Assembly: GCA_041659045.1 (NCBI GenBank)
Contig: JBAZZB010000001.1
Span: forward strand, 70,111 to 134,110
DNA: 64,000 nucleotides
Reading direction: 5' to 3'
Source of the DNA: Patescibacteria group bacterium
Lineage (GTDB): Bacteria > Patescibacteriota > Patescibacteriia > SG8-24 > DYFX01
In this document: piece by piece, positions 1,251 through 62,938 of the stretch
Layout: every line of letters starts with the position of its first letter
Numbering within the stretch: the stretch's first letter is position 1
Made by a program: the position numbers and the translations under genes
Notes under the pieces: generated by a model
What the model saw: the letters and a program-made list of their open reading frames with translations, nothing else
What the model was told of the DNA's origin: nothing
Database searches by the model: none

Positions 1251-3458
<2,208 letters not shown>

Positions 3459-3491
3459 TCAGCGCGTGTTTGTTCGAATAATGGAGGCATC

Positions 3492-3905
3492 ATGGATACG
3501 TCGTCCTCACCAGTGACCATCATCCGTCCCCGTTCCAGCTGTCTCACCGACCTCGCGCAGCAGATGAGCTGGCTCATTGCCGGCAACCCGGACGGCACGC
3601 CCGTCATCGTCGAGCGCCTGATGCGGGAGGGTGGCATCACGTTCGGCGATCCCGACTTCCCGACGACGGAGAAGGTGTACACCGGCCTCGTCCGGAACTT
3701 CTGGTTCTCGGAAGCGTGCGACCAGTTCGAGTGGATCCAGCAGGAGGTTCGTGCGGGCGAGTACTGCGAAGCCGATCAGTCGGCGCTCGATCGTCTCGAG
3801 AAGATCCTGACCGACAACGTCATCTCGCACGCGGAGCTTCGCTCGACCCCCGAGGAGTTCTCGCGGTTGCGTGCGGCTCTGCGACCCGCGACCAACCCCA
3901 CCTGA
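3492..3905 (+). CDS. hypothetical protein (high-GC3 gene)
   Basis: ORF with a GGAGG RBS 6 nt before the ATG at 3492; near-saturated GC at third positions; no recognisable motif. Confidence 0.5.
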   Translation: MDTSSSPVTIIRPRSSCLTDLAQQMSWLIAGNPDGTPVIVERLMREGGITFGDPDFPTTEKVYTGLVRNFWFSEACDQFEWIQQEVRAGEYCEADQSALDRLEKILTDNVISHAELRSTPEEFSRLRAALRPATNPT

Positions 3906-4025
3906 TCTCCGCCCTCAACCACTCGCGCATCCGCGCGGCAAAGAGCATCGCTCGCTCAAGCCGTTCAGGTGCGCTCTTTGTTTTTATGAGGAATGTCGAT
4001 GGCGAATCTGCTATACTTATAAGGT

Positions 4026-4898
4026 ATGGCAGACTCGTCGAACGGGAGCTTCGAATCCACCGGAGCCGCGACAGAAAAAGAACTCCGCTGGAGCCAGTGG
4101 TGGATTGATCATAAGGAGCAGGTCAAAAAGGCCGGGCTCGGAGTTTTTATGGCGTTCGATGTGTGTCTCCTTGGTTTCGGTTTTTGGGGCTTCATCGATT
4201 GGTTGGCGTTCGGCGGATTGCGGGAAGAACAGATGATTCGCCAGATGACGTCTCCTGAATACGGCCGCTTCACGAGCGTGGCACTTGAGGAGGTACAGGT
4301 CGGCGCGCCGATCGTTCTCTCGGGTGGTGTCGGCAAGATCGATATTTTGACGCCGATCGAAAATCGCAACGATGCTTTTTGGGCGGAGGTTGAGTACCGC
4401 TATCTCATCGGCGGTACGGAACAAGCATTACACAAAACGTTCGTGCTTCCCGGGCAAACCAAATACCTCAGCGAACTCGGTGCTTCATCTGGTTCGGGAG
4501 CGAGTGTCGAGCTCCGGATTGAAAAAAGACTTTGGCACCGAGTTGATTTGCAAGACGCCGCGAATGCCGCGGAGTTTGCCGAGTCGCGTCTGAACATTCG
4601 CGCCGAGAATCCCGCCTACACGGCTTCCGATCCTTTGGCGACAACTCCGGTATCGAGTGCGAAGTTCACCCTGGTCAACGGATCAGCGTTCGGATATTAC
4701 GACGTGAATCTTCTCGTGCTGCTCTATCGCGGTGACACGGTTGTCGGCGCGAACCAAGCGAGGGTTGAGACGCTCGCGGCTGGCGAGAAGAAACAGATGG
4801 AACTTTTCTGGTTCCAACTCCTGCCGCAAGTCACCAAGGTGCAAGTTGTTCCCGACATCAATATCTACGACCCGTACGTCTACCGTTCGCCGCGTTAA
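4026..4898 (+). CDS. hypothetical membrane protein
   Basis: 290-aa ORF with an N-terminal TM segment (VFMAFDVCLLGFGFWGFIDWLAFGGL); followed by a terminator hairpin. Confidence 0.5.
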   Translation: MADSSNGSFESTGAATEKELRWSQWWIDHKEQVKKAGLGVFMAFDVCLLGFGFWGFIDWLAFGGLREEQMIRQMTSPEYGRFTSVALEEVQVGAPIVLSGGVGKIDILTPIENRNDAFWAEVEYRYLIGGTEQALHKTFVLPGQTKYLSELGASSGSGASVELRIEKRLWHRVDLQDAANAAEFAESRLNIRAENPAYTASDPLATTPVSSAKFTLVNGSAFGYYDVNLLVLLYRGDTVVGANQARVETLAAGEKKQMELFWFQLLPQVTKVQVVPDINIYDPYVYRSPR

Positions 4899-12578: not shown

Positions 12579-13667
12579 TCATTCCTCGTCGGAATCGCCA
12601 CCCGTACCGAATGTGCCCGCGCGGTCGGCTTCGTGAAGGGAGCGCATGATCTCGTCCAAGCCGCCTGCGAGAATCGCCGGCATGCCGTGCCAGGATTTCT
12701 TGATGCGATGATCCGTCACGCGATCTTGCGGGAAGTTGTAGGTGCGGATCTTTTCGGAGCGTCCGCCTTCGCCGATCTGGCCCTGGCGAAGGTCGGTGCG
12801 TGCCTTGCGGCGTTTTTCTTCTTCAATGGCAAACAAACGCGAGCGCAGCACGGCCATGGCTTTCTCGCGGTTCTGAATCTGACTGCGTTCGTCCTGGCAA
12901 CCGACGATCATGCCGGTCGGCAGGTACGTGATGCGTACGGCCGAATAGGTCGTTTGCACGCCTTGTCCGCCATGACCTCCGGCCAAGAACGTATCGATGC
13001 GGATATCCTTGGGATCGATTTTGATGTCGATGTCTTCCGCTTCAGGCATAGCGGCAACAGTCACGGTCGAGGTGTGCACGCGTCCCGCCTTTTCTGTTTC
13101 CGGCACGCGCTGCACGCGGTGGACGCCGGACTCGTATTTCATCTGGCGGTAGACATTCTTGCCCTGCAAACTGAAGATGGCTTCTTTCATGCCTCCGAGA
13201 TCGTTCAAGCTCTGCGAGATCGCGGCAACCTTCCAACCTTGCTTCTCGGCGTAACGCACGTACATGCGGAAAAGTTCTGCGGCGAAGAGCGCGGCTTCGT
13301 CGCCACCAACGCCCGCGCGGATTTCGATGATCGTGTTTTTCTTGTCGAGCGGATCGGGTTCGACCAAAGCGTCTTCGAGTGCCAAGCGCGCCGTTTCGAA
13401 CTCAGCGCCGACGCGCACGGCTTCGGCCTCGGCCATGGCTTTGAGTTCGGGGTCAGTTTCGCTCTTTAACATCGTGTCCGTGTCGGCAGCTTCTTTCTCA
13501 AGTGCCTCGTAGCGTTCGGCGATATCGAGGATCTCGCGCAGCTCGCTGTACTCCTGGTTGAGCGCGCGCATTTTTTGGTTGTCAGAAATCACCTCCGGTT
13601 GCGACAGAAGCGTTTCGATTTCTTGAAAGCGCGCGCGCTTGTTTTTGATTTCGACCGGGACATTCAT
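12579..13667 (-). CDS. prfA: peptide chain release factor 1
   Basis: RF-1 domain order with GGQ loop ([12 protein letters not shown]) and conserved RITYLPTG / DRVTDHRI segments; start set at the [10 protein letters not shown] methionine. Confidence 0.9.
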
Positions 13668-13689
13668 ATGGAAGAGTATAGCGCAGATA

Positions 13690-13720
13690 GCCAAAACCCC
13701 CCGACGCTGTCGGGGGGTTT
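13690..13720 (-). terminator. intrinsic terminator after rpmE (minus strand)
   Basis: ccccccgac-gct-gtcgggggg hairpin immediately past the rpmE stop; a U-rich tail follows on the minus strand. Confidence 0.65.
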
Positions 13721-13727
13721 AGCGAAG

Positions 13728-14012
13728 CTACTTCGAGGCTTTGGCGGCTTTCTGGGCAACGCGCTTGATCGTGCGTGCCTTTTTTCCGGTGGCCTTGGCG
13801 GCCGTGCTCGGCTTCTTGGAGGTGCGCTCCTGGAACTTTTCGACGCGGCGGGAGGCGTCGACCAGCTTCTGCTTACCCGTGTAGAACGGGTGGCAGGCGG
13901 AACACAGTTCGACGTGGAGATCCTTAATGGTGGCTCCGGTCGAGAAGGTGTTGCCGCAGGCGCACACAACCTTGGCGTCAGAATAATATGTCGGGTGGGT
14001 GTCGGCTTTCAT
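13728..14012 (-). CDS. rpmE: 50S ribosomal protein L31 (zinc-binding type)
   Basis: [26 protein letters not shown]...[17 protein letters not shown]. This is the C-terminal end of the artefactual 848-aa antisense ORF 13728-16274. Confidence 0.85.
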
Positions 14013-14168
14013 ATATTGACTACGGCGAGGACTATAGCAGGGGCGCGTGGAGTTGGCAAGGGGTGAAGAAAGAAGCTTGACAAGTCGGGCTTTTTGCGGT
14101 AGGAAAAGGCCGCCGGTAACAATGCCGGTTACGCTTCTTGAAACGAACAAAGAAAGATCGAGGTCACA

Positions 14169-16196
14169 ATGCAGTGGATCACTCCACAGATGCTGGCTCT
14201 GTACGCGGGGGTTGCCTTCTTGGCACTCCTGATCCTGCCATCCATTCGGGTCATCGGACCTACGGAGGTTGGTCTCGTGACCAAACGCTTCGGCTTCAAG
14301 GAGCTGCCTGACGAGAATCCCATCGCCTTCAAGGGCGAGGCGGGGTTCCAGTCGGATCTGCTCCTGGCCGGATGGCACTTCAAGCTCTGGATCGTCTACG
14401 GCGTCCAGAAGTTCCCCTGGGTACAGGTGCCGGCGGGACAGATCGGTGTCGTCGTCGCCCAGCTCGGGCAGGCGCTGCCACCCGGCGCGAAGTCCGCGGC
14501 CTACAAGCAGGCGTTCGGCAACTTCACCGATCCTGCGGCGTTCGTGCAGCATGGCGGCCAGAAAGGCGCCCAGCGCCATCTGCTCATGCCCGGCACGTCG
14601 CTGCCGATCCATCCCGCGGCCTTCATGGTCATCACGAAGGAACGCGTCTACGGACTTCCGATCTCGCCGGAGCTCGAGCGCAAGGCCGGCAAGAACGGCC
14701 TGCGTCCTGAGGTCTTCGGCCTCGAGGCCACGCAGCTCGATCTCGTCCAGATCGGACCGGTGAAGGACAAGGAAGGCAAAGACACCGACATGATCGGTAT
14801 CGTGACCGCCCTCGAAGGCGATCCGCTGCCGCCGACCGACATCGCTTGCCGCCTCGGCGGCTTCACCGATCTCGGCACGATGATGCAGGGCGCCGACTGC
14901 AAGGACAGCGACCTCAGCGAGGCGTTGCTCGGCAGCCAGAACAAGCAGCACAACAACTACCAGAACTTCCAGGCGTTCCTCGACGCCGGCGGCAAGATCG
15001 GCGTCCAGCACGACCCACTCCTCTCCGGAGCGTACGCGCTGAACCCGTTCCTCGTCCGCGTCGAGCGCGTGCCGATGCTGGTCGTGAACCAGGGCGAGGT
15101 CGCGGTCGTGAAGGCCTTCGTCGGCCTGATGACCGAGGACGTCTCCGGCGCCGGGTACAAGCACGGCTCGCTCGTGCGCCCCGGCCGCCGCGGCATCTGG
15201 GAGGAGCCCCTCCGCACCGGCAAGTACGCGCTCAACCCGCGCTGCTACCAGGTCGAGATCGTGCCGACGGCGATCCTCACGCTCAACTGGGCGGAGGCCG
15301 TCTCCAAGGCGCACAACTTCGACTCGGGGCTGAGCCAGATCGACGCCAAGAGCCGTGAGGGCTTCGAGTTCGCCATCGACCTGCAGGTCCAGATCCACGT
15401 GCCTGACACCAACGCCTCGCGCGTGATCGCCGCGGTCGGGACGATGCACAACCTGGTCAACGAGGTCCTGCAGGCGGCGGTGGGCAACCACTTCCGCGAC
15501 AAGCTGCAGGGGCTCCCGGCCATCAAGTTCATCGAGACCCGCCAGGAGATCCAGGTCGAGGCGTTCGCCCACATCAAGCAGGAGCTGGCCAAGTATGATG
15601 TCGAGACACGCGGCGTCTACATCCAGGACGTCGTCCAGCCCAAGGCGCTGATCGACGTGCTCACGGAGCGCGAGATCGCGAACCAGAAGATCGCGACCTA
15701 CAAGAAGGAGCAGGAGGCCGAGGAGACGCGCGTCGCGATGGAGCAGGCGAAGGGCAAGGCCGACATGCAGGCCAAGCTCGCGCAGTCCACGGTGCAGGTC
15801 GACATCGAGACCAACAACGCCAACGCCCTCAGGGCCAAGGCGGGCGGCGAGTCGAACTACATCGAGACGGTCGGCGCCGCCGAGGCCGCCAAGATCAAGG
15901 CGCGCGGTCTCGCGGAGGCCGCCGGCTACCAGGCGCAGAAGGATGCGATCGGCCCGCAGGCGACCGCCATCGTCAACGCCATCCAGGCCATCGCCGACGG
16001 CAAGGTCAACATCATGCCCGAGGTGCTCGTGGTCGGCGGCGGAGGCGGCGCGTTCGAAGCGCTCGCCAGCGTCGTCACCCAGGCGGCTCGCTCCGGCAAC
16101 GTGCCCGGCCTCGGCAAGGCCCAGCCCGTCGCTTCGGCAGCGCCGCTCGAGAGCGGCAGCAACGGCAAGTCGCAGAGCGGCACACTCAACGGCTAG
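14169..16196 (+). CDS. SPFH/band-7 domain protein, flotillin-like (YqiK/FloT-type) with long coiled-coil tail; high-GC3 foreign-looking gene
   Basis: N-terminal TM segment, SPFH-like core, then an EA-rich coiled coil ([37 protein letters not shown]... [20 protein letters not shown]) and a GGGGG tail; about 68% GC versus about 57% in neighbouring genes. Confidence 0.65.
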
Positions 16197-16214
16197 TACG
16201 ATCAGCTCAACCAG

Positions 16215-16248
16215 ACCAAACCTTCGCGGTTTGGTCTTTTCTTTTTGC
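16215..16248 (+). terminator. intrinsic terminator after the flotillin-like gene
   Basis: gaccaaacc-ttcgc-ggtttggtc hairpin followed by ttttctttttg. Confidence 0.75.
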
Positions 16249-16276
16249 GTGCTATGGTCGAGGTAAGGAGGCATCC

Positions 16277-26179: not shown

Positions 26180-27442
26180 ATGCCCACCATTCGCGACATC
26201 AAAGGCCGGGAAATTCTCGACTCTCGCGGTAATCCGACCGTCGAAGTGAAAATGACGCTCTCTGACGGCACGATCGCCAAAGCCTCGGTGCCTTCTGGCG
26301 CCTCGACAGGTTCGCACGAAGCACATGAGATGCGTGATGGCGACAAGCGTCGCTTCGGCGGACTCGGTGTTTTGAAGGCGATCAAGAATGTTGACGGGCC
26401 GATTGCGGACGCTTTGCGTGGTATGGAAGTGCAGGAGCAGAAGAAGCTCGACGCACGCATGCGCGACTTGGACGGCACGCCGAACAAATCAAAACTTGGC
26501 GCCAACGCCATTCTTGGTGTTTCTTTGGCCGCCGCGCGCGCAGGAGCGACCTCGCTTCAGCTCCCGCTCTATCGCTACTTGCGCGACATCTACGATTTGC
26601 CGCGCGAAGACGGCTACAAATTGCCGCTGCCGATGATGAACGTGTTGAACGGTGGCGCGCACGCCAACTGGAGCATCGATTTCCAGGAATGCATCATCAT
26701 TCCGAAACAGAAAAAATTCCGCGACCGCGTTCGATGCGGCGCTGAAATTTTCCACGCCCTTCTCGCGATTCTCAAGGATAAGAAGATGCCGACGGGCGTC
26801 GGTGATGAAGGCGGTTTTGCGCCGAAACTCAAGAAGAACGCGCAAGCCTTCGAACTGATCGCGCTGGCCGTACGCAAGGCGGGTTACAAGCTCGGTCCTG
26901 ATGTCGCCTTTGGCATGGACCCGGCTACTTCCGAATTCTACGACGCGAAAAAGAAAAAATACGTCCTCGCGACCGACGGCCGGAAACTGGATTCCGATGG
27001 CATGGTTAAAATGTGGGCCACCTACGTGAAGCGCTGGCCGTTCCTTTCGATCGAAGACGGCATGGCCGAGGATGACTGGGATGGTTGGAAGCAATTGACC
27101 GACGCGCTCGGCAAGAAGATATCGCTCGTCGGAGACGATTTCTTCGTGACCAACGTTGACCGTCTGCGCATGGGTATTGAACGCGGCGCGGCCAACGCGA
27201 TTCTGATCAAGGTCAACCAAATCGGCACGCTTTCGGAAACGATCGACGCGATTCGTTTGGCGCAGCGCAGCGGCTACAAGGTCGCGATCTCGCACCGTTC
27301 CGGCGAAACCGCCGACACGATGATTGCCGACTTGGCGGTCGCGGTGAACGCAGAGTTCATCAAGACAGGTTCGCTCTCACGCAGCGAGCGTCTTGAAAAG
27401 TATAATCGCTTGATGGAAATCGAGGATGAAGTCGGCGGCTAA
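26180..27442 (+). CDS. eno: enolase
   Basis: [61 protein letters not shown]. Confidence 0.95.
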
Positions 27443-29000
27443 AGAGACAATCCGACCGGTTGTCCTGGCGATCTGCGACGGCTTCGGTTCGGCTCCGGCT
27501 GGGCTGCAAGGCAACGCCGTCTTGATGGCGAGGATGCCGCACTTTTCGGAGCTGTGGGGGAAATACCCGCACACCGATTTGTTTTCGCATGGCCAACACG
27601 TCGGCTTGCCCAAGCATCAGTCCGGCAACTCCGAGGCCGGGCACATGAATATCGGCGCTGGACGCATCATCAAGCAAGACGCTGTCTACATCACCGAAGC
27701 CATCGAAGACGGTATCTTCTTCAAGAACACGGCGTTTCTCGAAGCGCTCAAGCATGTCAAAAAATATCGGACGCGCGTGCATCTCATGGGGCTCATTTCG
27801 GGCGGCAATTCGGCGCACGCCTCGATGGATCATCTCTACGGACTTTTGGAACTCTGCCGCCGCGAAAAAATTGAAGACGTGGCGCTGCATCTGTTCACCG
27901 ACGGACGCGACAGTCCTCGGTTTTCGGCGACCACGCAAATTCACGACATTGAAGCGCGACTTCGTCCCGGCGAAAGAATCGCTTCGATCATGGGGCGATT
28001 TTATCCGATGGATCGCAACCGCAACTGGGAGCGCATTGGTTTGGCGTATCACGCGATCGTGAATGGGGAAGGTCTTGCGGCGGCCAGCGCCGAAGAAGCG
28101 CTTCTGGGCGCGTACAACCGCGGCGAAACCGATGAGTTTCTTTTGCCGACCGTCATCGTCGACAAAGAGCATGTGCCGCACGGCACGGTGCGCGACAACG
28201 ACGCAATTTTCTTCTTCAACTTGCGTTCCGATCGCGCGCGCCAACTCGCCAAGGCTTTTTTGCTTGATGATTTTGAAAAAAGCGTACCGGATGCCTTTAC
28301 GCGCCGCCGCGTGCCGAAAAATACGCGTTTTGTCGCCATGACGGACTTCGGCCCCGATCTGCCGTATATTCTGACCGCCTATCCCAGCCGCGAACTCAAG
28401 AAAACGTTACCGGACGTGCTCAAGGATTTGAAACAATTTTACGTTGCCGAGTCCGAAAAATTTTCGCACATCACGTTTTTCTTCAACGGCGGCTACCCCG
28501 ACCATCATTTTGGCGAGGAACGCCTGAGAATTGAATCGCTGCGCATCCCGCGCTACGACATGCGTCCCGAGATGAAAGCGCTCGAAGTCACGACCGAGGC
28601 GCTCAAGCGCATTCGTTCCGGGAAGTATCACTTCGTCGCCATTAATTTTGCCAATGCCGACATGGTTGGCCATACCGGCAACCTTGAGGCTGCCGTGAAC
28701 GCGCTCGAAGTGCTCGACGATTGTATCGGACGCTTGTGGAAGGAAATTGATGCCAAAGACGGAACGTTTGTTGTGACTTCGGATCACGGCAACGTTGAAT
28801 CGATGATCGATGTCACGACGGGTGCGGTGGATACCGAGCATTCGACGAACCCCGTACCGTTCGTTGTCGCCAATAAAAACCTCAAGGGCGGAAGGGAGTT
28901 GCCGCGTGGAGTTTTGGCTGACGTCGCCCCTACGATCCTGGATATCATGGGAATTCGCCCTCCCGACGAGATGAGCGGACGCTCTTTGCTGGCCGATTGA
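27426..29000 (+). CDS. gpmI: 2,3-bisphosphoglycerate-independent phosphoglycerate mutase, paralog 1
   Basis: Catalytic Ser motif [32 protein letters not shown]-terminal TSDHGNVE. Overlaps the eno 3' end by 17 nt. Confidence 0.85.
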
Positions 29001-29022: not shown

Positions 29023-30600
29023 ATGCCTACACCGAAACCCGTCGTCTTGCTGATTCTTGATGGTTGGGGCGTTGCGCCGCCCGACCAAGGCAACGCGCTG
29101 GCACTCGCCAAGACGCCGAACATGCGCGCTTTGGCTTCGAAATATCCGGCCATGACGCTCCAGTCTTCCGGCGAAGAAGTGGGCCTCATGTGGGGCGAGA
29201 TGGGCAACTCGGAAGTCGGCCATCTTACGATCGGCGCGGGCAAGGTGTATTACCAAAGCTTGCCGCGCATCAATCGCGCGGTTCAGGGAGGGGAGTTCTC
29301 GACGAACCCCGGATTTTTGAAAGCGATCGAGCACGTGAAAAAGAATGGCACAAAGTTGCACTTGCTCGGCTTAGCCTCGATTGGCAACGTCCACGCCTCG
29401 CTTGAGCATTTGCTTGCGCTTCTTGATTTTGCCAAGTCGCAAGAGATAAAAGAAACCTACGTGCACGCTGTGCTCGACGGTCGTGACACGACCTTCAACG
29501 CCGGTATCGACTTCATCACGACCGTCGAAGCGCGTATGAAGAAAAACGGCGTCGGTAAAATCGCCACGCTTTCCGGACGCTACTACGCCATGGACCGCGA
29601 CAATCGCTGGGATCGCGTTGAGAAAGCGTATCGCGCCATGGTTGATGGCGTGTCCGACGCTAAGAACGACGACCCGCTCGCCGCCATTCGCGCTTCATAC
29701 GAAGCGAAAGTTTACGACGAGGAATTTGTTCCGACGGTCATCACGAAAAACGGAGAACCGGTCGCCAAAATCGAAGCGGGCGACGCGGTCATTGTTTTCA
29801 ACTATCGCCCCGATCGCTCGCGCGAAATCACGAAAGCTCTGGTACTGCCGGAGTTCGACAAGTTTGCCCGCCCGCAAATTGCCGATCTCGTGGTTGTCAC
29901 GATGACGGAATACGAAAAAGGACTCCCGGCCGAAGTTGCCTTTCCTCCAGAGCCGATTTCAACGTGCTTGGCGAAAGTCATTTCCGACGCCGGCATGAAG
30001 CAGCTGCACATCGCCGAAACGGAAAAATACGCGCACGTGACGTTCTTTTTGAACGGCATGAAGGAAGATCCGTTCGGCGGCGAAGACCGTGTCATCGTGC
30101 CGTCACCCCAGGTTTCTTCCTACGATCAGAAGCCGGAAATGTCGGCGCCGCAAATTACGGAACGAATCGTGAAAGAGATCGGCGCCGATAAGTACGACCT
30201 CATCGCCGCGAACTTCGCCAACGCCGACATGGTCGGCCACACCGGCAGCCTCGAAGCGACCATCAAGGCCGCTGAATTCGTCGACGTCGCCATCGGAAAA
30301 ATCGCCGCAGCAACGCTCGAAAAAGGCGGTGTCGTCCTTATCACCGCCGACCACGGCAACGCTGAAGAAGTCGTCAATTTGCAAACCGGTTCGATCGACA
30401 AAGAACACTCCACCTACCCCGTACACTTCCTGATCATCGGCCAGCAGTTCGAAGGCATGGCCGGCGAAGCCCAAGAAATGGTCGGCGGTGACCTGAGCCT
30501 CAGCCCGCCGGTGGGAATGCTCTCTGATGTCACCCCAACGATCCTGCGCATCATGGGCATCCCGCAGCCGTCAGACATGACGGGGAGGCCGTTGATTTAA
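29023..30600 (+). CDS. gpmI: 2,3-bisphosphoglycerate-independent phosphoglycerate mutase, paralog 2
   Basis: LILDGWGVAP, EMGNSEVGHLTIGAGK, HLLGLASIGNVHAS, TADHGNAE; about 40% identity to paralog 1 by eye. Confidence 0.85.
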   Translation: MPTPKPVVLLILDGWGVAPPDQGNALALAKTPNMRALASKYPAMTLQSSGEEVGLMWGEMGNSEVGHLTIGAGKVYYQSLPRINRAVQGGEFSTNPGFLKAIEHVKKNGTKLHLLGLASIGNVHASLEHLLALLDFAKSQEIKETYVHAVLDGRDTTFNAGIDFITTVEARMKKNGVGKIATLSGRYYAMDRDNRWDRVEKAYRAMVDGVSDAKNDDPLAAIRASYEAKVYDEEFVPTVITKNGEPVAKIEAGDAVIVFNYRPDRSREITKALVLPEFDKFARPQIADLVVVTMTEYEKGLPAEVAFPPEPISTCLAKVISDAGMKQLHIAETEKYAHVTFFLNGMKEDPFGGEDRVIVPSPQVSSYDQKPEMSAPQITERIVKEIGADKYDLIAANFANADMVGHTGSLEATIKAAEFVDVAIGKIAAATLEKGGVVLITADHGNAEEVVNLQTGSIDKEHSTYPVHFLIIGQQFEGMAGEAQEMVGGDLSLSPPVGMLSDVTPTILRIMGIPQPSDMTGRPLI

Positions 30601-31156: not shown

Positions 31157-32485
31157 ATGGAAAAAAGGAGAACCAGCAGGGAATTCATCGCGATGGAAGT
31201 TCCGGAAGATTTTGATTTGTCTGACGAGCGGAAAGCCGTGCTTGAGGCGCTCGAGCATACGAGAAAAAATATCTTTCTGACGGGAAAAGCCGGGACGGGA
31301 AAATCGCAACTTTTGAAATATTTCCGCGCGACGACGCGGAAGAAAATCGCGGTATTGGCGCCAACAGGTGTTGCGGCGGTGAACGTGCAGGGGCAGACGT
31401 GGCACTCGTTTCTTAAATGGCACGGCGATTTCCGGGCCGCAAAAAAACTGAGCATCGAAGAAGCGAAAGTCTTTCGCGAACTCGATATGGTGATCATCGA
31501 CGAAATCTCGATGGTGCGTGCGGATCATTTGGATTACATCGATCATTTTCTCCGGTTGAATCGGGTTGCTCGGGACATGCCCTTCGGCGACGTGCAGATG
31601 CTTCTTCTGGGAGACCCATTCCAGCTGCCGCCTGTCGTGCCGGACGATTTGAAGGAGGCGTTGAAGAGCCTCTATCCCAGCGAGCATTTTTTTGATTCCG
31701 GCGCGTATTTGTCCGGGAACTTTCAGAAATTCGAACTGGTGAAAAATTATCGCCAGCGCGACGAGAAGAAAGGAGACCGCAAGTTTATCGAGGCGCTGGA
31801 CGCCTTCAGGACCGCGACGTTTGACGAAGCGCATCTCGCGCACATTAATACGCGAGCGACGAAACAGAAAAAACATAAAGCGGCGATCTCTGTCGTTTCA
31901 AGAAACAAGATGGCCGATGACATCAATACCGAAGAGCTGGCAAAATTGGATACGCCGGCAAAGGTTTATCAGGGAATCATCCTGGACAAATTCAAGGAAA
32001 AAGATCTCCCTACGGCTTTTGATTTGGTTTTGAAAGTGGGCGCGCAGGTCATGCTCTTGAACAACGATCCGCAAAAGCGTTGGATCAACGGGGATATCGT
32101 GGAAGTCATCCGCACTGAAGATTCATATATCAGAGTCCAGTTCGACGACGGCTCCTACGCCGACGTCGGCCCGAACAAGTGGGAATCGGTTCAGTTTTCT
32201 TTCGATGAAGAAAATAAGAGCGTGCGTCCTGAAGTGACGGGATCATTCAGCCAGTTGCCCGTGAAGCTCGCTTGGGCGATCACAATCCACAAGAGCCAGG
32301 GTCAGACGTTCGACAATGTGCGTATTCATTTCGGCGCGGGCGCTTTCGCCGCGGGGCAGGCCTACGTGGCGCTCAGTCGCAGCAGAACGCTGGGTGGAAT
32401 CGTCCTCGCGCATCCAGTAAGATCCAGCGACATCTTCGCGGACGATCGGATTAAAACGTTTATGGCGTCAGACCTCGCCGCTTGA
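31157..32485 (+). CDS. PIF1/RecD-family ATP-dependent DNA helicase
   Basis: Walker A LTGKAGTGKS; Walker B VIIDEISMV; C-terminal QGQTFDNV, AYVALSRSR motifs typical of PIF1/RecD helicases. Start uncertain (31157 or 31193). Confidence 0.65.
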   Translation: MEKRRTSREFIAMEVPEDFDLSDERKAVLEALEHTRKNIFLTGKAGTGKSQLLKYFRATTRKKIAVLAPTGVAAVNVQGQTWHSFLKWHGDFRAAKKLSIEEAKVFRELDMVIIDEISMVRADHLDYIDHFLRLNRVARDMPFGDVQMLLLGDPFQLPPVVPDDLKEALKSLYPSEHFFDSGAYLSGNFQKFELVKNYRQRDEKKGDRKFIEALDAFRTATFDEAHLAHINTRATKQKKHKAAISVVSRNKMADDINTEELAKLDTPAKVYQGIILDKFKEKDLPTAFDLVLKVGAQVMLLNNDPQKRWINGDIVEVIRTEDSYIRVQFDDGSYADVGPNKWESVQFSFDEENKSVRPEVTGSFSQLPVKLAWAITIHKSQGQTFDNVRIHFGAGAFAAGQAYVALSRSRTLGGIVLAHPVRSSDIFADDRIKTFMASDLAA

Positions 32486-32518: not shown

Positions 32519-33679
32519 ATGTCCCAGAACTTCACGCTGACCCATCAAGACAAAAACAGCCGCGCTCGCGCGGGGGTTTTGCATACCGATCATGGTGCCG
32601 TGGAGACGCCGGTCTTTATGCCGGTTGGCACGCAAGCGACGGTCAAAGCTCTCGACGCGGCGGACATGGAAATGCTCGGTGCGCAGATTATTTTGAACAA
32701 CACGTATCACCTGCATCTTCGCCCGGGTGAGGATGTCGTGAAGAAGCTTGGTGGCGCGCATGCGTTCCAAAATTGGAACCGTGCGATTTTGACGGATTCG
32801 GGCGGCTATCAGGTTTTTTCTCTCGGTGCGAAGAAATCCGCGCATGGAAACTTGGTGAAGATCGATGAGGACGGCGTCACGTTCAAGTCGCACCTCGACG
32901 GATCGAGTCACCGCTTCACGCCGGAAGAGGCGATCAAGATTCAGCAGAAACTCGGCGCCGACGTCATTATGGCGTTCGACCAGTGCACCTCAGACAGCGC
33001 TTCCGAGTCCGAGGCGCGCGCCGCGATGGAGCGCACGCATCGTTGGGCGGATCGTTGCCTTGCGGCTTTTGCCGATAAAAAAGACGCACCCGCTTTTAAG
33101 CAGCAACTTTTCGGCATCGTGCAGGGCGGCGTCCACAAGGAACTGCGCCGTGCTTCGGCAGAATTCATCGCTTCGCGCGCCTTCGATGGTTTTGCGATCG
33201 GCGGCGAGTCGGTCGGGTATAACATGGAAAAGACACGTGAGATTCTTGGCTGGATCGAAGACCTCATGCCGGAGGATAAAGCGCGCTACACGATGGGTGT
33301 CGGGCTTTCGCCGGAAGATCTTTTTGATGTGGTTGAAGGCGGCGCTGATATGTTTGACTGCGTTTCGCCGACGCGCACCGCTCGAAATGGCGCGCTCTAC
33401 AACCGCAAAGCGGGACGCTCGAAAAAATATCGCGTCGAAATCGGCAACAAGGCGCATGAGCAATCTATGCTCCCAATCGATGAAGAATGCGGATGCTTCA
33501 CCTGCAAAAACTACACCCGTGCCTATTTGCGCCACATCTTCCTGGCCGAAGAGCTCGCGTACTTCCGCCTCGGCACCATTCATAATCTGCACTTCCTCCT
33601 GAACTTGATGCGTGAGATGCGCAAGGCAATCCTTGAAGACCGTTTCCTCGACTTCAAGAAAAACTGGATCGTCGAATAA
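32519..33679 (+). CDS. tgt: queuine tRNA-ribosyltransferase
   Basis: HGAVETPVFMPVGTQATVK, LTDSGGYQVFSL, zinc site CGCFTCKNYTRAYLRH. Confidence 0.9.
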   Translation: MSQNFTLTHQDKNSRARAGVLHTDHGAVETPVFMPVGTQATVKALDAADMEMLGAQIILNNTYHLHLRPGEDVVKKLGGAHAFQNWNRAILTDSGGYQVFSLGAKKSAHGNLVKIDEDGVTFKSHLDGSSHRFTPEEAIKIQQKLGADVIMAFDQCTSDSASESEARAAMERTHRWADRCLAAFADKKDAPAFKQQLFGIVQGGVHKELRRASAEFIASRAFDGFAIGGESVGYNMEKTREILGWIEDLMPEDKARYTMGVGLSPEDLFDVVEGGADMFDCVSPTRTARNGALYNRKAGRSKKYRVEIGNKAHEQSMLPIDEECGCFTCKNYTRAYLRHIFLAEELAYFRLGTIHNLHFLLNLMREMRKAILEDRFLDFKKNWIVE

Positions 33680-33683
33680 AAAA

Positions 33684-33720
33684 GCCGCCCTTCGAGATGA
33701 TCGGGGCGGTTTTCAGTTTT
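33684..33720. terminator. bidirectional terminator between tgt and the convergent small-ORF operon
   Basis: gccgccc ... gggcggt hairpin with AAAAA upstream and TTTTCAGTTTT downstream. Confidence 0.6.
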
Positions 33721-34231
33721 CCTTTGACTCGCGCTCTTCGGCTTGGAGCGCGGCCTCGCTTGCTGAGCGCAGGACGGCTTTGAGGATGAGGATCGCTCTC
33801 TGGCGATCAACTTCCGGATGCCGATAGAGAATGTAGGCAAGGTTGCCATCAGTGTCTTGCGCCGCGATCATCGCCGCGGCGACGGTCGGCGTGCGTCGCT
33901 TGATGACGAGCGCACCCTTCTCTTCAACGGTGAGTTCAACCTCAAGATCGTCGATCTTCTGGGCGATACTGTTCATCACGAACACGCTGTCTCTAGCGGA
34001 GTCGTACGCCTTCGCGAGAAAGCGGGGCTTGTCGCTGTTGTAGACGCAGCCGAACACGCCGACAATATCGTAGTTGGGCGAGTCCGCCGCTGCTGGGTCG
34101 CCTTCGATGACCTCGGAGTTGAGGAGACCGTTACGGACTTCGTAGTGCACGTTCACGAGCACGAGTTCGCGACCGTCGGGAATGACCGTGTTGAGATGCT
34201 CGTACAGATCTTCGCTCGTCATTGCCTTCAT
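33713..34231 (-). CDS. hypothetical protein (last gene of queA operon)
   Basis: GGAGG RBS then ATG (MKAMTSEDLYEHL...); no recognisable motif. Confidence 0.45.
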   Translation of the reverse strand: MKAMTSEDLYEHLNTVIPDGRELVLVNVHYEVRNGLLNSEVIEGDPAAADSPNYDIVGVFGCVYNSDKPRFLAKAYDSARDSVFVMNSIAQKIDDLEVELTVEEKGALVIKRRTPTVAAAMIAAQDTDGNLAYILYRHPEVDRQRAILILKAVLRSASEAALQAEERESKEN

Positions 34232-34309
34232 ACAACCTCCTGAATGACGTACGTCCACTCCATCAAGGAACGCCCGCTTCGTCAAATGAAAAACCATCCG
34301 TGCGGATGG

Positions 34310-34798
34310 TTAGGCGTCGACGACGATCGCGCCTTTGATGGCGGCGTAGATCGTTGCGTCTTCGAACAATGGGAGATAGAAGAGTATCACGGTCGGTTGT
34401 TCTGATTGCGCGCGCGACATGGTAATCGCGGCGACAACCTCGCGCCCGGTGTACGGTAGCTTCGAGAGCGCTTCCGTCGGGAACTCGTTCGAGCCAGGCA
34501 GCGTCTGCATCAGGTAGCTCTGCATCGCTGCGCTGACCTCTTCGAACTCCTTGTCCTCGCCATGAATGTACGTCGCGAGCGTGCCGCCGTTCTCGTGAGT
34601 AACGACAACGAGCGCATCGTGCTCGAGAATTTCGACAAGCGACTCGATGCATCCCTTGAGTGGCCGATAGGCGAGAAAGCCTTTGGCCAAGTCATCCAGA
34701 AAATTGAGATACATCCAGAGCGCGGAACCTTCTTCGAGTCCGGCTGCCATCTTGTACATATGCGCTTCGATGGCTGCAAGCTCATCCTTCGTCGGCAT
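34310..34798 (-). CDS. hypothetical protein
   Basis: 162-aa ORF; its start overlaps the stop of the upstream gene at 34798. Confidence 0.45.
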   Translation of the reverse strand: MPTKDELAAIEAHMYKMAAGLEEGSALWMYLNFLDDLAKGFLAYRPLKGCIESLVEILEHDALVVVTHENGGTLATYIHGEDKEFEEVSAAMQSYLMQTLPGSNEFPTEALSKLPYTGREVVAAITMSRAQSEQPTVILFYLPLFEDATIYAAIKGAIVVDA

Positions 34799-35313
34799 CA
34801 GCTGCCTCCCTTCATGGCTTCAGCTTCCTTCTCGCGAATGAACTGGATCGCCAGTTTGAGGTGACCGATCGCCTTCGCGAACGAGATATCTCGCTTCCAG
34901 GCGACGCCGACGAGCTTCACGCCGTCTTTGCGCTCACCGTAATAAGCGAATACAAGCGTCGTCGCCGGTTCCGGCACGGAAGCGCGTGCTTCCTCCGGTG
35001 TCGTGGGTTTGCCTGGTTGGGACAGAATCGCCTTGAGCAGCGTGTCGCGATCTTGCAGTTCCTCGCCATTGTTCGACGCGGGGTAGAGAAAGAATCGGAG
35101 CGCGCCGTCGGCGGTCGTGCCGATCGTGAAAAGTGAACGCCAGAACGGGCTGCCTGTTTCTTCCGGACCCTCGATCGCTCGATGATCGAGAATGTCACTG
35201 TCCATGTCGGTAAGCGCCTTGAGCAAGGTGCGACCCCCGTGGTTCAGGGGAAGCAGCTGGTCCCACTCCGCCATCGCTTCGGAAACCGGCTTGAGATCTG
35301 CGTCGTCAGTCAT
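34798..35313 (-). CDS. hypothetical protein
   Basis: Start set at MTDDADLK (M85 of the track ORF); stop overlaps the start of the next gene. Confidence 0.4.
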   Translation of the reverse strand: MTDDADLKPVSEAMAEWDQLLPLNHGGRTLLKALTDMDSDILDHRAIEGPEETGSPFWRSLFTIGTTADGALRFFLYPASNNGEELQDRDTLLKAILSQPGKPTTPEEARASVPEPATTLVFAYYGERKDGVKLVGVAWKRDISFAKAIGHLKLAIQFIREKEAEAMKGGS

Positions 35314-35314
35314 G

Positions 35315-35788
35315 TCACGACTCCAATCCGGAGCGGATACATCCGCGTCCGAGCAAGGTGGTGAGCCACCGCTTCGCTTCCTCTTCTTGGAAGCATGGGT
35401 GATAGTACAAGGCCAAGAAAGCTTCGTCATTCGTATCTTGACCCCACATCGCCAGGAGCAGCGTCTTCGGTTCTTCACGCAGGGCGTTTTGAAGCGCCTG
35501 ACGCTCCGGCATTTCCGCAACGTCGTCGCCGAGCAACCTTCGAAGCGCCATGAAGCGCGCTTCATCCGTGATGTTCGCGATATCGACGCAGAAGTCGCCG
35601 TAGAGCACGCCGTCGATCGTGGCTGCGGCCCAAACGTCGCAGAATTTTGGCGCGTGCGCCGGCCAGCGTCCGTAGACTTGTGTCAGTCGAAGCGTGCGTT
35701 CCGCCAGGTCCGTTGCCGAGACCTGAAACAGGCGTTCACGCGCCTCTGTGGCGGGAAAGGTCTGTTCGAACGGTTTCGAAAAGGGCAT
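35315..35788 (-). CDS. hypothetical protein
   Basis: GGAGG RBS 5 nt before the ATG (MPFSKPFEQTF...); 2-nt gap to the next gene. Confidence 0.45.
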   Translation of the reverse strand: MPFSKPFEQTFPATEARERLFQVSATDLAERTLRLTQVYGRWPAHAPKFCDVWAAATIDGVLYGDFCVDIANITDEARFMALRRLLGDDVAEMPERQALQNALREEPKTLLLAMWGQDTNDEAFLALYYHPCFQEEEAKRWLTTLLGRGCIRSGLES

Positions 35789-35862
35789 GGCGACCTCCTG
35801 TGTGGGAGCCATGAACATTTGAGCATTTGGCTGGTGCGCGGTCAATGTTCCGAGCTGAGGCT

Positions 35863-36888
35863 TCAAACAATCAACATGGCGTCGCCGTAGCTGTAAAAAC
35901 GATATTTCTTCTTCACGGCTTCGCGATACGCTTTCAAAATCCTCGGTCGTCCGGCCAACGTCGAAACAAGCACGAGGAGCGTCGACTTCGGAAGATGGAA
36001 ATTCGTCATCAAAGCGTCGATGACACGAAATTTGAAACCAGGGCGAATAAAAATATTCACGTCGCCGTGCCAAGCGCACAACTCGCCTCCGCAGGCTTCG
36101 ACCGCGCCTTCAAGAGCGCGGGCGGTCGTGGTACCGACGGCAATGACGCGCCGCGACGCCACTTTCGCCTTCAAAATTTCTTTGACGGTTTTCTCGGGGA
36201 TCTCGACCCACTCTGCGTGCATTTTATGCACGTCGAGTTCGTCGGCGCGAATCGGCAAGAACGTGCCGAGTCCGACATGCAGCGTGACTTCCAAAAACGT
36301 CACGCCCTTCTTTTTCAACTTCGCGATCAAGGCTTTGGTGAGATGGAACCCGGCCGTCGGCGCGGCGACGGAGCCGACGCTTTTGGCGTAGGCCGTCTGG
36401 TATTCGGACGCGCGTGGCTTGCGCGTGATGTAGGGCGGCAGGGGAATCTCGCCGTTTTTATCGGCCAGCTTGATGACCGCATCCTTCTTCATGCCAAAGT
36501 CGACGAGAATCGAGCCGTCCGCGTCCTTCCATTCCACAGTCGCAACAAACCCGCGGGCGATCGTAATCTTCGATCCGTGCTGCAGTTTTTTTCCTGGCCG
36601 AGCGAGTGCGCGCCAGAAGTTTCCTTCTGGTCTCACGAGAAAAAGTTCGACAGCCGTTTTCTTGGTGTCGTCTAGTGTGCCGGCGAGTCGCGCCTTGAAT
36701 ACTTTACTCACGTTCACAACCAGCACGTCACCCGCCTCCAAAAAATCGGGAAGATCCTTCACGTGCTTGTGCGCGATCGAATCCTTTGCGCGATCAAGTA
36801 CCAAAAGTCTCGCCGACTCGCGCGGTGAAGCGGGTTTTTGGGCGATCAGGGATTCTGGCAGGTCGTAATCAAACTCGGAGACGCGCAT
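35863..36888 (-). CDS. queA: S-adenosylmethionine:tRNA ribosyltransferase-isomerase
   Basis: MRVSEFDYDLPESLIAQKPASPRESARLLVL, then GTTTARALE, ...DALMTNFHLPKSTLL. Confidence 0.9.
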   Translation of the reverse strand: MRVSEFDYDLPESLIAQKPASPRESARLLVLDRAKDSIAHKHVKDLPDFLEAGDVLVVNVSKVFKARLAGTLDDTKKTAVELFLVRPEGNFWRALARPGKKLQHGSKITIARGFVATVEWKDADGSILVDFGMKKDAVIKLADKNGEIPLPPYITRKPRASEYQTAYAKSVGSVAAPTAGFHLTKALIAKLKKKGVTFLEVTLHVGLGTFLPIRADELDVHKMHAEWVEIPEKTVKEILKAKVASRRVIAVGTTTARALEGAVEACGGELCAWHGDVNIFIRPGFKFRVIDALMTNFHLPKSTLLVLVSTLAGRPRILKAYREAVKKKYRFYSYGDAMLIV

Positions 36889-36958
36889 AGGATGACATTG
36901 TAGCATATGGTGATTGACAAGTTCATCGAAATGCTGGAGGCTGCGCGCGGGAGGAATC

Positions 36959-37426
36959 ATGAAGCTTCTCGAAGGACACGACTTGCACGAAGACCTGCCG
37001 CGCGAACGGATCAAGATCAACGCCGATCTTGTCCTGCCGGATTCCGTCCGGTGTCGACTCGGCCTCAAGACAAACGAGGATCCGAACGCGCCGTACTTGA
37101 CGGTCAAGCTCGGTTTCTACAGAACCGGCGATGCGGTGTACGAGCACGACTTCCGGGACCCGCCGCCGACGATGTACCTCGATCAGGTCGGCGTGAGCGG
37201 ACTCGTGCTCTTCAATTGCGCGGGTGCGGACTGTGAAGACGCTCTGCACGAGCTGATTGACCTGACCGGCAACCGCGCGTTCACGCCGCTCGCCGACATC
37301 CAGATCGACCAGGATCATCACTGGGTCATCATCTCGCTCGCGATCGGCAAGAAGGGCGACCGCTACTACTGGGAAGCCGCCCACAACGTGAAGCTCGCCG
37401 ACTTCAAGCAGTCGCTCCATCTCTGA
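36959..37426 (+). CDS. hypothetical protein (elevated GC3)
   Basis: GGAGG RBS then ATG (MKLLEGHDLHED...); no recognisable motif. Confidence 0.45.
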   Translation: MKLLEGHDLHEDLPRERIKINADLVLPDSVRCRLGLKTNEDPNAPYLTVKLGFYRTGDAVYEHDFRDPPPTMYLDQVGVSGLVLFNCAGADCEDALHELIDLTGNRAFTPLADIQIDQDHHWVIISLAIGKKGDRYYWEAAHNVKLADFKQSLHL

Positions 37427-61259: not shown

Positions 61260-61366
61260 GCCCACATCGTAACCTTTACGATGGGCGATTGACAATCGGT
61301 TTTTTTCTTGATGGAGTGTGCGCAGGTCATTTCGACCGCGCTAACCCTTCACCGAGGAGACATCCC

Positions 61367-62938
61367 ATGCCGAAGCTCGTAAAAGCGACGCTTGTCATGA
61401 GCGACCACCACCTCGGCGAGGGGAAGCCTAAGCTCGAGGATTTTCCGTCTGAGAACGAAAAGGCATATCTCGAGATGCTCGAGGCGCACTTGCGCATCAT
61501 CGGTCCGGACAGTGAATACGTGCACGTGATCGGTGGCGACTGGCTCGATCACCACGCGGTTGAATTCGAGGGCCGGTACGGAATTTTTCCGACGGAAGAA
61601 GCCGCGCTTGCCAAGACGCAAGCGATCATCAACGCGCACCGCGCGCACTTCGATGGCTTGGGCCAGCTGGCCGGATGCTATCCGTCGCTCGTCTTTCGAA
61701 TCGTCATCGGCAATCACGATCTCGACCTCTCGTGGGAGAGTGTGCAGTCGATGATTCGCGCCGCGCTCGTTCCTGCGGAAGAAGCGCACCGCGTGACGTT
61801 TCATCGCGAAGTACGCATCGCCGAGTCAGTGTTGTTCTGTCATGGCGACCAGTTCGATCCGTTTTCGGCGAATCCGCCGGAAGAGGAAACGTTCAAGGAC
61901 GACGTGATGATCAGCCGCAAGGTTATGCTGCTCATGCTGCTGCTTTCGCTTGTGCTCTCCGGTGCGCTGACGGGCGTCATGTTCGCCATCTTGCCGTATA
62001 CGTTCGCGGGTATCGCCGTCGGCAGCATCTTTTCTTTCTTCGTGCTGTTCCTCATGTTCCGTTGGATCGCCGGACACCTGGCGTTTCGTTGGGGGAGCGC
62101 GAAAAGAGTCTTGAACGTGCCGATCGCTTCGCACATGAACGCCGGGCTCGGCACGAAGCTCAAGAAGTGGTTCTTTCACGGGATTGGTCGGCGCGTCGAT
62201 CACGGCGACGAGTGGATTCTCGGTGTCGCTGAAAAGTGGTACGCCTTGCCGATTCTCTTGCCGATGATCGCGCTTGAAGTCATTGCGCTCAAGTTCTTCT
62301 ATCTGTTCCGGCGCCCGCGCGAGCGATTCAATCCGAGCTTGATGCTCGACTTGCTTGCTTCGACGATGCACGCCGATCGCATTGAGAAAGAGCTGAACGC
62401 GTTTTTGGCGGAACGTCCCGAAGTGTGCCACTTGATCGCGGGGCATACTCACGACGGCAAGATGGTTACGGTTGAGAACGGTGACCGCACGGTCATCTAT
62501 TACAACTCCGGAACGGCAATCCGTCAGATGCGCACCTTCAAGCCTGAAGTGCGTGCCGTAACGGCTTGGCCGAAGGTTGAAACGTTTTTCCGACGCGTGC
62601 TGTACTACTGGCTGCACGCGCCTTGGAAGGCGGTGGGATCAACGCTGGCATACGCCTTCTTTCCGGTCGCGATCTTCATGCTGCCGGAGCTGCCTGTCCT
62701 CACGACGCTCCGTTGGCCGATCGCGTTCGTCGCGCTCTTCCTTCTGCTGTGGTGGCAATTCGCCGCCGAGTATCGAGAGGGCCACTTCTTCCGCTTCACG
62801 CCTCCGGAAGTGCTCGAGTACGACGATGGTTCGGTGCGCGTACGTATTCTGCAATACGATCATGAAACCCGGCGCTTCCTTCTTCTGACCGGAGAAGATG
62901 CTTCGTGGGATCATTACACGGAAGGTTTAGTCGGTTGA
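61367..62938 (+). CDS. membrane-embedded metallophosphoesterase (catalytic domain interrupted by a multi-TM insertion)
   Basis: GAGGAG RBS; MSDHHLGEG (DxH), IGGDWLDHH (GD), VIGNHDLDL (GNHD), LFCHGDQFD, then about 170 aa of TM helices, then IAGHTHDG (GHxH), then further TM helices. Confidence 0.6.
   Translation: MPKLVKATLVMSDHHLGEGKPKLEDFPSENEKAYLEMLEAHLRIIGPDSEYVHVIGGDWLDHHAVEFEGRYGIFPTEEAALAKTQAIINAHRAHFDGLGQLAGCYPSLVFRIVIGNHDLDLSWESVQSMIRAALVPAEEAHRVTFHREVRIAESVLFCHGDQFDPFSANPPEEETFKDDVMISRKVMLLMLLLSLVLSGALTGVMFAILPYTFAGIAVGSIFSFFVLFLMFRWIAGHLAFRWGSAKRVLNVPIASHMNAGLGTKLKKWFFHGIGRRVDHGDEWILGVAEKWYALPILLPMIALEVIALKFFYLFRRPRERFNPSLMLDLLASTMHADRIEKELNAFLAERPEVCHLIAGHTHDGKMVTVENGDRTVIYYNSGTAIRQMRTFKPEVRAVTAWPKVETFFRRVLYYWLHAPWKAVGSTLAYAFFPVAIFMLPELPVLTTLRWPIAFVALFLLLWWQFAAEYREGHFFRFTPPEVLEYDDGSVRVRILQYDHETRRFLLLTGEDASWDHYTEGLVG

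Follow-up and report, generated by a model that had tools for sequence, protein, structure and literature searches.

Why should four small genes without recognisable relatives stand between queA and tgt, two genes of the queuosine pathway, in a member of the Patescibacteria? The question is raised by a stretch of 64,000 nucleotides from a Patescibacteria group bacterium (contig JBAZZB010000001.1, positions 70,111 to 134,110; hereafter the window, whose own numbering is used throughout), in which queA is followed on the minus strand by the open reading frames (ORFs) a, b, c and d, here called the array, and these are met by the convergent tgt. The main result of the analysis is paralogy: at the level of sequence profiles, a, b, c and d were shown to be ancient, strongly diverged tandem paralogs of one domain of ~165 residues. 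Around this result we place the questions of whether the genes are real, how they came to lie at this site, how they are transcribed, what kind of proteins they encode, and whether they have anything to do with queuosine.

Direct pairwise BLASTP among the four window proteins gives marginal matches only (E 0.02 or worse), and the paralogy became significant only once the profiles of the corresponding families A, B, C and D had been enriched with distant orthologues. Profile-profile comparison (hhalign) then matched C with D (97.4%, E 1.1e-11 over 148 columns), B with C (97.4%, E 1.2e-11 over 149 columns), A with B (94.6%, E 6.8e-8 over 124 columns) and A with C (87.5%). In agreement with this, HMM-to-sequence searches returned cross-matches between the families, as for gene 4 of locus L093, which matches D at 3e-59 and C at 3.8e-10. 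All of the additional array ORFs tested from more distant lineages (10/10), among them both halves of a fused 332-aa protein of L094 (L094_3), match the superfamily profile at 74-98%. The array proteins share an N-terminal motif, [DE][LI]xxGxL...G, a central LP, and a C-terminal beta-hairpin that is followed by [WYF][HYS]xP and then by a helix. An earlier note on this DNA had proposed checking the four ORFs for pairwise similarity as tandem paralogs, and at profile level the answer is positive, with C-D and B-C both at 97.4%. The same note had described the products as having no recognisable motifs, which holds against databases but overlooked that the four ORFs are homologous to each other.

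None of the four proteins matches Pfam, NCBIfam, PADLOC or PHROGs, and 42 family members scanned singly gave no recurrent match in Pfam, PHROG, PADLOC, NCBIfam or PDB sequences; PADLOC returned nothing for the window proteins and two isolated weak matches among the 42. Profile searches of PDB sequences matched an AI-designed TIM barrel (4e-4, 65 residues) and, at 0.54, the type III chaperone SigE, both of which were regarded as noise, and a type III chaperone or YbjN-like fold, prompted by a similar order of elements, was set aside as having no supporting match. The families are also sparsely populated. Among 5.77 billion proteins, family c forms 9 clusters and family d forms 6, and the c profile finds 12 matches among 1.84 billion representatives, including two long repeat proteins that are most likely spurious and two fragments; on the contigs of the distant hits, 2-4 small ORFs again lie between queA and a convergent tgt. 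A metagenome scan with degenerate c patterns yielded random matches only, and scans of viral contigs for c and d found no relatives. By these sequence searches, the family was shown to be confined to one narrow lineage of the Patescibacteria (candidate phyla radiation, CPR), and a literature search found no paper linking the queuosine genes of Patescibacteria/CPR to such an array. Of 30 other window proteins surveyed, 14 have no Pfam hit at 1e-5, and no further queuosine genes were seen among the 30. Genes without annotation are usual in this genome; the array stands out by its paralogy, its strict address and its clean regulatory punctuation, not by a mere lack of annotation.

The address is best described from its borders. 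The upstream neighbour of the array is queA (35863..36888, minus strand; Pfam Queuosine_synth 2.8e-124; 83-91% identity in close relatives), and its downstream boundary is tgt, encoding tRNA-guanine transglycosylase (32519..33679, plus strand; 386 aa; Pfam TGT 5.6e-142; 92-94% identity in close relatives), which runs convergent to the array and is thus inverted with respect to the usual co-directional queA-tgt arrangement. Between them, all on the minus strand, lie gene a (35315..35788; 157 aa; family A), gene b (34798..35313; 171 aa; family B), gene c (34310..34798; 162 aa; family C) and gene d (33713..34231; 172 aa; family D), for which an independent gene caller made identical calls on a public contig with the same locus. 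A 74-nt spacer separates queA from a, a 1-nt gap separates a from b, the stop of b and the start of c overlap by 1 nt (TGATG), and c and d are separated by a 78-nt spacer. The ribosome-binding sites read GGAGG in a and d (5 nt and 4 nt 5' of the ATG, respectively), GGGAGG in c and GGAG only in b. The earlier observation is therefore essentially right apart from two junctions: the four minus-strand ORFs after queA are present with the sizes it gave, as are the 78-nt spacer and one 1-nt overlap, but a second such overlap and a 2-nt gap are not. Likewise, the tight a-b-c coupling that it described is there and is kept in relatives, whereas the junction of queA with a, also held to be tight, is not; and the GGAGG site ascribed to the first three ORFs applies to a and, within GGGAGG, to c, but not to b.

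The a-b gap and the b-c overlap, each of 1 nt, are identical in L003, L005, L083, L086, L088 and L090, and the gene that precedes C is joined to it by a 1-nt gap or overlap also in L091, L094 and L096. The array has a GC content of 0.56-0.60 and its flanks one of 0.53-0.59; a recent horizontal transfer of the array was considered and, given this match in GC content, rejected.

Are these genes real? A queA-anchored scan with one genome per species led to L003, a complete 1.17-Mb genome of a Patescibacteria group bacterium (CP129476.1) with a queA 91% identical to that of the window, and to three further relatives; more were added by exact-protein look-ups and by a tgt-anchored metagenome scan, for a total of 14 distinct lineages, in which identity to the window falls from 91% to 58% for queA and from 94% to 70% for tgt. 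The ratio of nonsynonymous to synonymous substitution rates (dN/dS) lies at 0.18-0.43 for orthologues of a (50-80% identity), 0.09-0.31 for b (48-92% identity), 0.12-0.33 for c and 0.23-0.43 for d (32-83% identity), as against 0.03-0.11 for the flanking queA, tgt and fpg, all of these being Nei-Gojobori estimates in which dS approaches saturation for the majority of pairs. Array and flanking genes rank in the same way when compared with L090, the nearest comparator (dS 0.4-1.0). Array proteins are 32-92% identical between relatives, the flanks 81-94%, and the evolutionary rate of the former is 3-8 times that of the latter. In addition, the lengths, start codons and Shine-Dalgarno sites of all four ORFs are conserved in orthologues. 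As judged by substitution patterns, these comparisons showed a, b, c and d to be genuine genes under purifying selection, since dN/dS is well below 1, that evolve several times faster than their neighbours; the earlier argument that the ORFs are real is thus upheld by orthologues in 14 lineages with dN/dS below 1 and conserved starts and Shine-Dalgarno sites. Within-population polymorphism was uninformative, the duplicate contigs being 99.9-100% identical.

How did the genes come to stand between queA and tgt? When the family HMMs were run against 10,336 ORF segments (the window and 96 loci) and 5,396 segments from 80 further tgt loci, they matched exclusively ORFs between queA and tgt in this clade, and no family member was found in the 151 non-clade queA or tgt loci examined. 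The array occupies this interval in 12 of the 12 lineages in which a contig spans it, and in L094 and L096 one flank only is visible. Co-occurrence of homologues with queA and tgt in other genomes, which the earlier note had wished to see checked, is thus invariable among the arrays of the clade. Outside the clade, queA and tgt are co-directional in all 37 loci that hold both, with a gap of <=325 nt in 30 of the 37; within the clade, the 12 lineages with both genes visible have them in convergent orientation, 1.2-2.8 kb apart. The more distant L006 (queA 52%) has neither an array nor an adjacent tgt, and the YceG, NUDIX, ManC, PAP2, nth and fpg neighbourhood is syntenic across the clade. On this comparative evidence, the array sits inside an ancestral, adjacent and co-directional queA-tgt pair, and the flanking by both genes is therefore explained without a functional link. 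That both queuosine genes flank the array was correctly observed in the earlier note, but the observation carries little weight, as queA and tgt are adjacent in most bacteria.

Other insertions occur at the same junction. In the unrelated bacterium of L105, 4.6 kb separate queA from tgt and include a 578-aa ORF (2542-4275, minus strand) with an N-terminus that may resemble a serine recombinase, and six other loci carry inserts of 1.3-4.1 kb between the two genes; the queA-tgt junction may be a recurrent insertion site. As regards the taxonomy of the relatives, L004, L005 and L006 belong to public metagenome-assembled genome (MAG) records titled 'uncultured Gammaproteobacteria'. For L004 and L005 this label looks wrong, judging from a queA and tgt that are 83-92% identical and a synteny shared with Patescibacteria genomes.

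The make-up of the array varies across the 14 lineages, from 2 to 5 copies. The order A-B-C, then D is shared by the window, L003, L083, L086 and L090, and L088 adds a tandem duplicate of D (e) to it. In L005, a divergent B-like gene (x) stands between A and C, with D following, and L093 holds a B-like and an A-like gene, then C and D. The arrays of L004 and L097 consist of B and D only, and that of L098 of two D-like genes. One weak member, a B-like gene and C are found in L091; a partial member, a B-like gene, C and the two-domain fusion in L094; and one weak member, C and D (partial) in L096. To judge from this distribution, subfamilies A, B, C and D are old and none is universal.

The spacers of the array carry conserved signals. 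A promoter-like footprint precedes a (35817..35845, minus strand), in which a -35 box, TTGACC, is followed after 14 nt by an extended -10 element, TGCTCAAAT. Across 8 loci the TTGAC and TGCTCMAATG boxes of the queA-a spacer are invariant and 14 nt apart, with varying sequence between them, and the window holds 5 instances of the -35/extended -10 pattern where 1.15 are expected. The same spacer has no significant structure (z -0.5) and no T-run; it would thus hold no terminator after queA, and read-through from queA is possible. Directly 3' of the c stop lies a hairpin with a T-run that resembles an intrinsic terminator (34287..34311, minus strand; AACCATCC-GCAC-GGATGGTT), which a terminator scan picked up and for which dG is -11.2 kcal/mol and z is -4.72, with 0/200 shuffles folding as well. 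A hairpin with a T-run is kept at this position in all related loci, although the stems are unrelated in sequence (CCATCCG, CCCCTC, ATCCCCCT, AACCGC). Just 3' of it, a TTTGACG box is invariant in 9 c-d spacers and is followed 14 nt on by a TG-type -10 region; in the window, this promoter-like footprint before d (34257..34285, minus strand) reads TTGACG, 14 nt, TGATGGAGT. Finally, the 33 nt between the stops of d and tgt (33680..33712, both strands) hold a hairpin with an A-run on one side and a T-run on the other, for which dG is -14.7 kcal/mol (z -2.75) on the minus strand and -18.3 kcal/mol (z -3.74) on the plus strand. Every related locus has a hairpin and a T-run here, in differing sequences, and the bidirectional terminator that the earlier note saw shared with tgt is a real hairpin that could act on both strands, as a putative terminator. 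The punctuation by hairpin, T-run and TTGAC box also separates cassettes in distant loci and precedes e in L088, and L093 has a structured spacer of 305 nt after queA. Taken together, these signals suggest that the layout is probably queA, then a-b-c, then d, and not one five-gene unit.

Two similar elements were seen elsewhere in the window. In a divergent intergenic region (61289-61317, plus strand), TTGACA-N14-TGATGGAGT has a -10 region, CTTGATGGAGT, identical to that before d, and lies upstream of a 523-aa protein (61367-62938) with no Pfam hit; this footprint and the one before d may represent a shared promoter class. At 36897-36905 (minus strand), an extended -10 element, TGCTACAAT, ends 8 nt before the ATG of queA, which has no Shine-Dalgarno sequence; the queA mRNA may therefore have little or no leader.

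What kind of proteins are encoded? An AlphaFold2 (AF2) model of c, built from nine c-family sequences, reaches a predicted local distance difference test (pLDDT) score of 81.2 and a predicted template modelling (pTM) score of 0.81 and shows an alpha/beta sandwich in the order two helices, strand, short helix, two strands, helices, two strands and C-terminal helix. Its best Foldseek matches in the PDB are GAF domains (CodY, NifA, fRMsr), Roadblock/LC7 and Ragulator, all non-significant (E 0.02-0.5, TM-score <=0.28), and a search of viral structures gave no match. As the four families are homologous, the c model serves as a working picture for all of them. Of ~45 array proteins, all but three have an isoelectric point (pI) of 4.4-6.0, the highest being 9.2, and none has a hydrophobic segment of transmembrane grade. 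Conservation across the superfamily is limited to Gly, Pro and hydrophobic positions, with no conserved constellation of Cys, His, Asp or Glu. The lack of conserved polar residues favours binding or adaptor proteins over enzymes, and this pattern, together with the acidity, argues against a redox role of the QueG/QueH type and against direct tRNA binding. Because C and the gene before it are joined by a 1-nt gap or overlap in almost every lineage, their products are the best candidates for partners.

We therefore favour, with somewhat better than even confidence, a reading in which the array is a set of tandem paralogs expressed as the units a-b-c and d, encoding non-enzymatic binders and lying near queA and tgt by inherited synteny. 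Accordingly worded in detail, a-b-c would be a translationally coupled unit transcribed from its own conserved promoter and ending at the intrinsic terminator after c, with read-through from queA possible but not required, and d would have its own promoter and end at the hairpin shared with tgt. The products would be soluble, acidic proteins that bind or serve as adaptors without being enzymes, folded as a GAF-like sandwich if the model of c is a guide, and would probably act as homo- or hetero-oligomers of paralogs, for which B and C are the best candidate partners. They would not carry out chemical steps of queuosine synthesis, and their position near queA and tgt would be a matter of inherited synteny. 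The fold class, the non-enzymatic binder role and the oligomerisation are the parts that we infer only weakly. Several points weigh against the reading as a whole. The absence of a terminator after queA in the window makes co-transcription with queA possible, and the promoters and the terminator are deduced from conservation and consensus. As the whole region from YceG to queA is syntenic, the exclusive position of the array cannot separate functional linkage from inheritance. The copy number of 2-5 and the absence of A and C from L004, L097 and L098 argue against an obligate complex of fixed composition. Additionally, the AF2 model of d, from six sequences, has a pLDDT of 41, so that c is the sole modelled member.

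A first alternative, which we consider rather unlikely, is that the array is a repertoire of immunity-, antitoxin- or anti-effector-like proteins, i.e., small acidic binders that neutralise varied targets and occupy a stable site on the chromosome. Small, acidic paralogs in tandem are what such a repertoire would consist of, and protein identities of 32-83% next to flanks at 83-94%, a narrow taxonomic range, and a history in which members have been gained and lost, duplicated (e in L088), replaced (x in L005) and fused (L094_3) would all be in line with it, as would the variability of the neighbouring U gene. However, the neighbours of the array are queA, tgt, fpg, nth, a PIF1-like helicase and the unannotated gene U, with no adjacent toxin, effector or defence gene, and no toxin, secretion-system, recombinase or mobile-element gene lies near the array loci examined. 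The proteins have no immunity or defence hits in PADLOC, Pfam or PHROG and no relatives in viral contigs, and the base composition of the array matches that of its flanks. Moreover, the A-D orthologues persist over deep divergence under purifying selection, unlike the turnover typical of orphan immunity genes.

A second alternative takes the flanking genes at their word and regards the array proteins as queuosine accessory factors that bind or hand over salvaged 7-deazaguanine precursors, or that regulate or scaffold Tgt and QueA; this we regard as distinctly unlikely. In its favour, the array keeps its place between queA and tgt even where these are 58% and 70% identical to those of the window, the window has no terminator between queA and a, and the modelled member c is GAF-like, a fold class that often binds small ligands. 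There is also room for such factors, as organisms with Tgt, QueA and QueG/H that lack QueDECF are predicted to salvage precursors, with some of the components involved still unidentified (PMC11130926), and in some archaea QueA and Tgt co-localise with QueH (PMC8204110). Against this stand the fact that queA and tgt are neighbours in most bacteria, so that flanking is expected for anything inserted between them, and the absence of the family from the 151 other queA or tgt loci examined; co-occurrence with queA or tgt in unrelated lineages, beyond inherited synteny, was not found. Both a-b-c and d appear to have conserved promoters of their own, and the structured 305-nt spacer of L093 follows queA. 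Rfam searches found no riboswitch (including that for preQ1) or other RNA between 33600 and 37500 at E <=10, and nothing but one tRNA in the window at the gathering threshold. The array proteins evolve 3-8 times faster than their flanks and vary in membership and copy number, their acidity makes direct tRNA binding unlikely, and no polar residue is conserved across the family. Nor is there homology to a known queuosine (Q) enzyme or transporter, by Pfam or NCBIfam hits or by a membrane segment. A special form of this alternative, in which the array encodes lineage-specific, GAF-like soluble proteins that capture or hand over preQ0, preQ1 or queuine, seems very improbable to us; in that case the paralogs could be specialised for different precursors, or else for Tgt and QueA. 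If this were true, an episymbiont with a reduced genome could finish making queuosine from material that it scavenges, and a pathway known to lack some of its salvage factors would gain a new type of component, one that belongs neither to the known transporters nor to the known hydrolases.

The preferred division into a-b-c and d must also be set against a single operon of five genes, queA-a-b-c-d, with the queA promoter as its only start and the terminator shared with tgt as its only end, as the earlier note had proposed. All five genes lie on the same strand, no terminator-like structure follows queA, and the a-b and b-c junctions are tight, yet we find such an operon quite improbable, given the conserved -35 and extended -10 boxes in the queA-a spacer, the hairpin and T-run after c (z -4.7), of which the structure is conserved with differing stems in all loci, and the conserved TTTGACG box behind it. 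The recurrence of the same punctuation between cassettes in distant loci speaks against it as well. Lastly, that the ORFs are open by chance alone or are pseudogenes in decay, as their lack of any database family match might suggest, is next to impossible and, on the comparative data, already refuted by the conservation of lengths, starts and ribosome-binding sites across 14 lineages, dN/dS values well below 1, the confident AF2 model of c and the near full-length profile homology among the four.

The genes around the array show features of their own. On the queA side, U1 is a 155-aa ORF (36959-37426, plus strand) divergent from queA, with its own GGGAGGA site and no family hits; its orthologues are recognisable only in L083, L086 and L088, at 26-35% identity and a dN/dS of 0.46-0.74, and their pI ranges from 5.2 to 10.3. 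U1 was considered as a fifth member or partner of the array and rejected, as it has no profile similarity to the family and is replaced by unrelated small ORFs in L003, L004, L090 and L091. On the other side, a PIF1-like helicase of superfamily 1 (SF1; 31157-32485, plus strand; Pfam PIF1 1.2e-25) lies directly upstream of tgt; a helicase is found at this position in L083, with an added methyltransferase, and not in L003 or L086, and the tgt-proximal side is thus also variable. Farther off, two adjacent genes of ~525 aa each (27426-29000 and 29023-30600, plus strand) would, to judge from relatives, encode cofactor-independent phosphoglycerate mutases, the called genes of this tandem pair in relatives carrying Metalloenzyme and iPGM_N domains. 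The longest ORF at 13728-16274 (minus strand), of 848 aa, has as its sole match ribosomal protein L31, at residues 755-817; a 675-aa ORF overlaps it on the opposite strand, and the gene model there is ambiguous. In L093, a reverse-transcriptase fragment (RVT_1; 13524-14558) adjoins a bAvd gene ~4.5 kb from the array, which suggests a diversity-generating retroelement, and none was seen adjoining the array of the window.

The analysis defines a new protein domain family with clear boundaries, four ancient subfamilies and one usable structural model. For CPR biology, it offers a tractable case of lineage-specific 'dark' genes that emerge and diversify by tandem duplication inside a broken housekeeping operon, and the alternation of terminator and promoter signals provides rare comparative evidence on such signals in Patescibacteria. 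For queuosine biology it holds a caution: flanking by queA and tgt is no evidence of function here, being uninformative because the two genes are ancestral neighbours.

Among known systems, the closest in genomic setting are the proteins of queuosine salvage and synthesis that cluster with tgt or queA, namely QPTR/YhhQ, QueT/QrtT, Qng1, QueK and QueH (PMC8204110; PMC11130926). Being soluble and free of membrane segments, the array proteins are not transporters; they differ from QueG and QueH in having no conserved Cys or catalytic residues; and they match none of these families, their own family being absent from the other queA and tgt loci examined. The closest in genetic behaviour are the orphan immunity-gene arrays of polymorphic toxin systems, which likewise consist of small, acidic, fast-evolving and mutually divergent tandem paralogs in variable copy number. 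Here, however, there is no toxin or delivery gene, no mobile-element signature and no match to a known immunity family, and the array keeps to one fixed site with orthologous members retained across deep divergence.

In structure, the modelled protein recalls two groups. GAF domains, such as the N-terminal GAF of CodY (PDB 2gx5/2b18) and those of NifA and fRMsr, resemble it in their length of ~160 residues and in the order of their elements, and they are the top Foldseek hits, yet non-significant ones (E 0.02 or worse, TM-score <=0.28). No GAF sequence model (Pfam GAF, GAF_2, GAF_3 and relatives) matches the four window proteins or the 42 family members at E <=1. The array proteins differ from GAF domains in having no conserved polar residue as a candidate for a ligand pocket and, whereas GAF domains are sensor modules of larger proteins, in being stand-alone and tandem. 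The Roadblock/LC7/MglB and Ragulator (LAMTOR) proteins are likewise small alpha/beta sandwiches and gave weak Foldseek hits (3kye, 5y3a, 9jue); they differ in that there is no sequence similarity, the hits are non-significant and no small GTPase neighbours the array loci, and the strand order is 2+3 in Roadblock and is predicted to be 3+2 in the c model. Roadblock proteins are homo- or heterodimers of diverged paralogs, and the conserved junction that joins C to its preceding gene suggests coupled pairs of a similar kind in the array.

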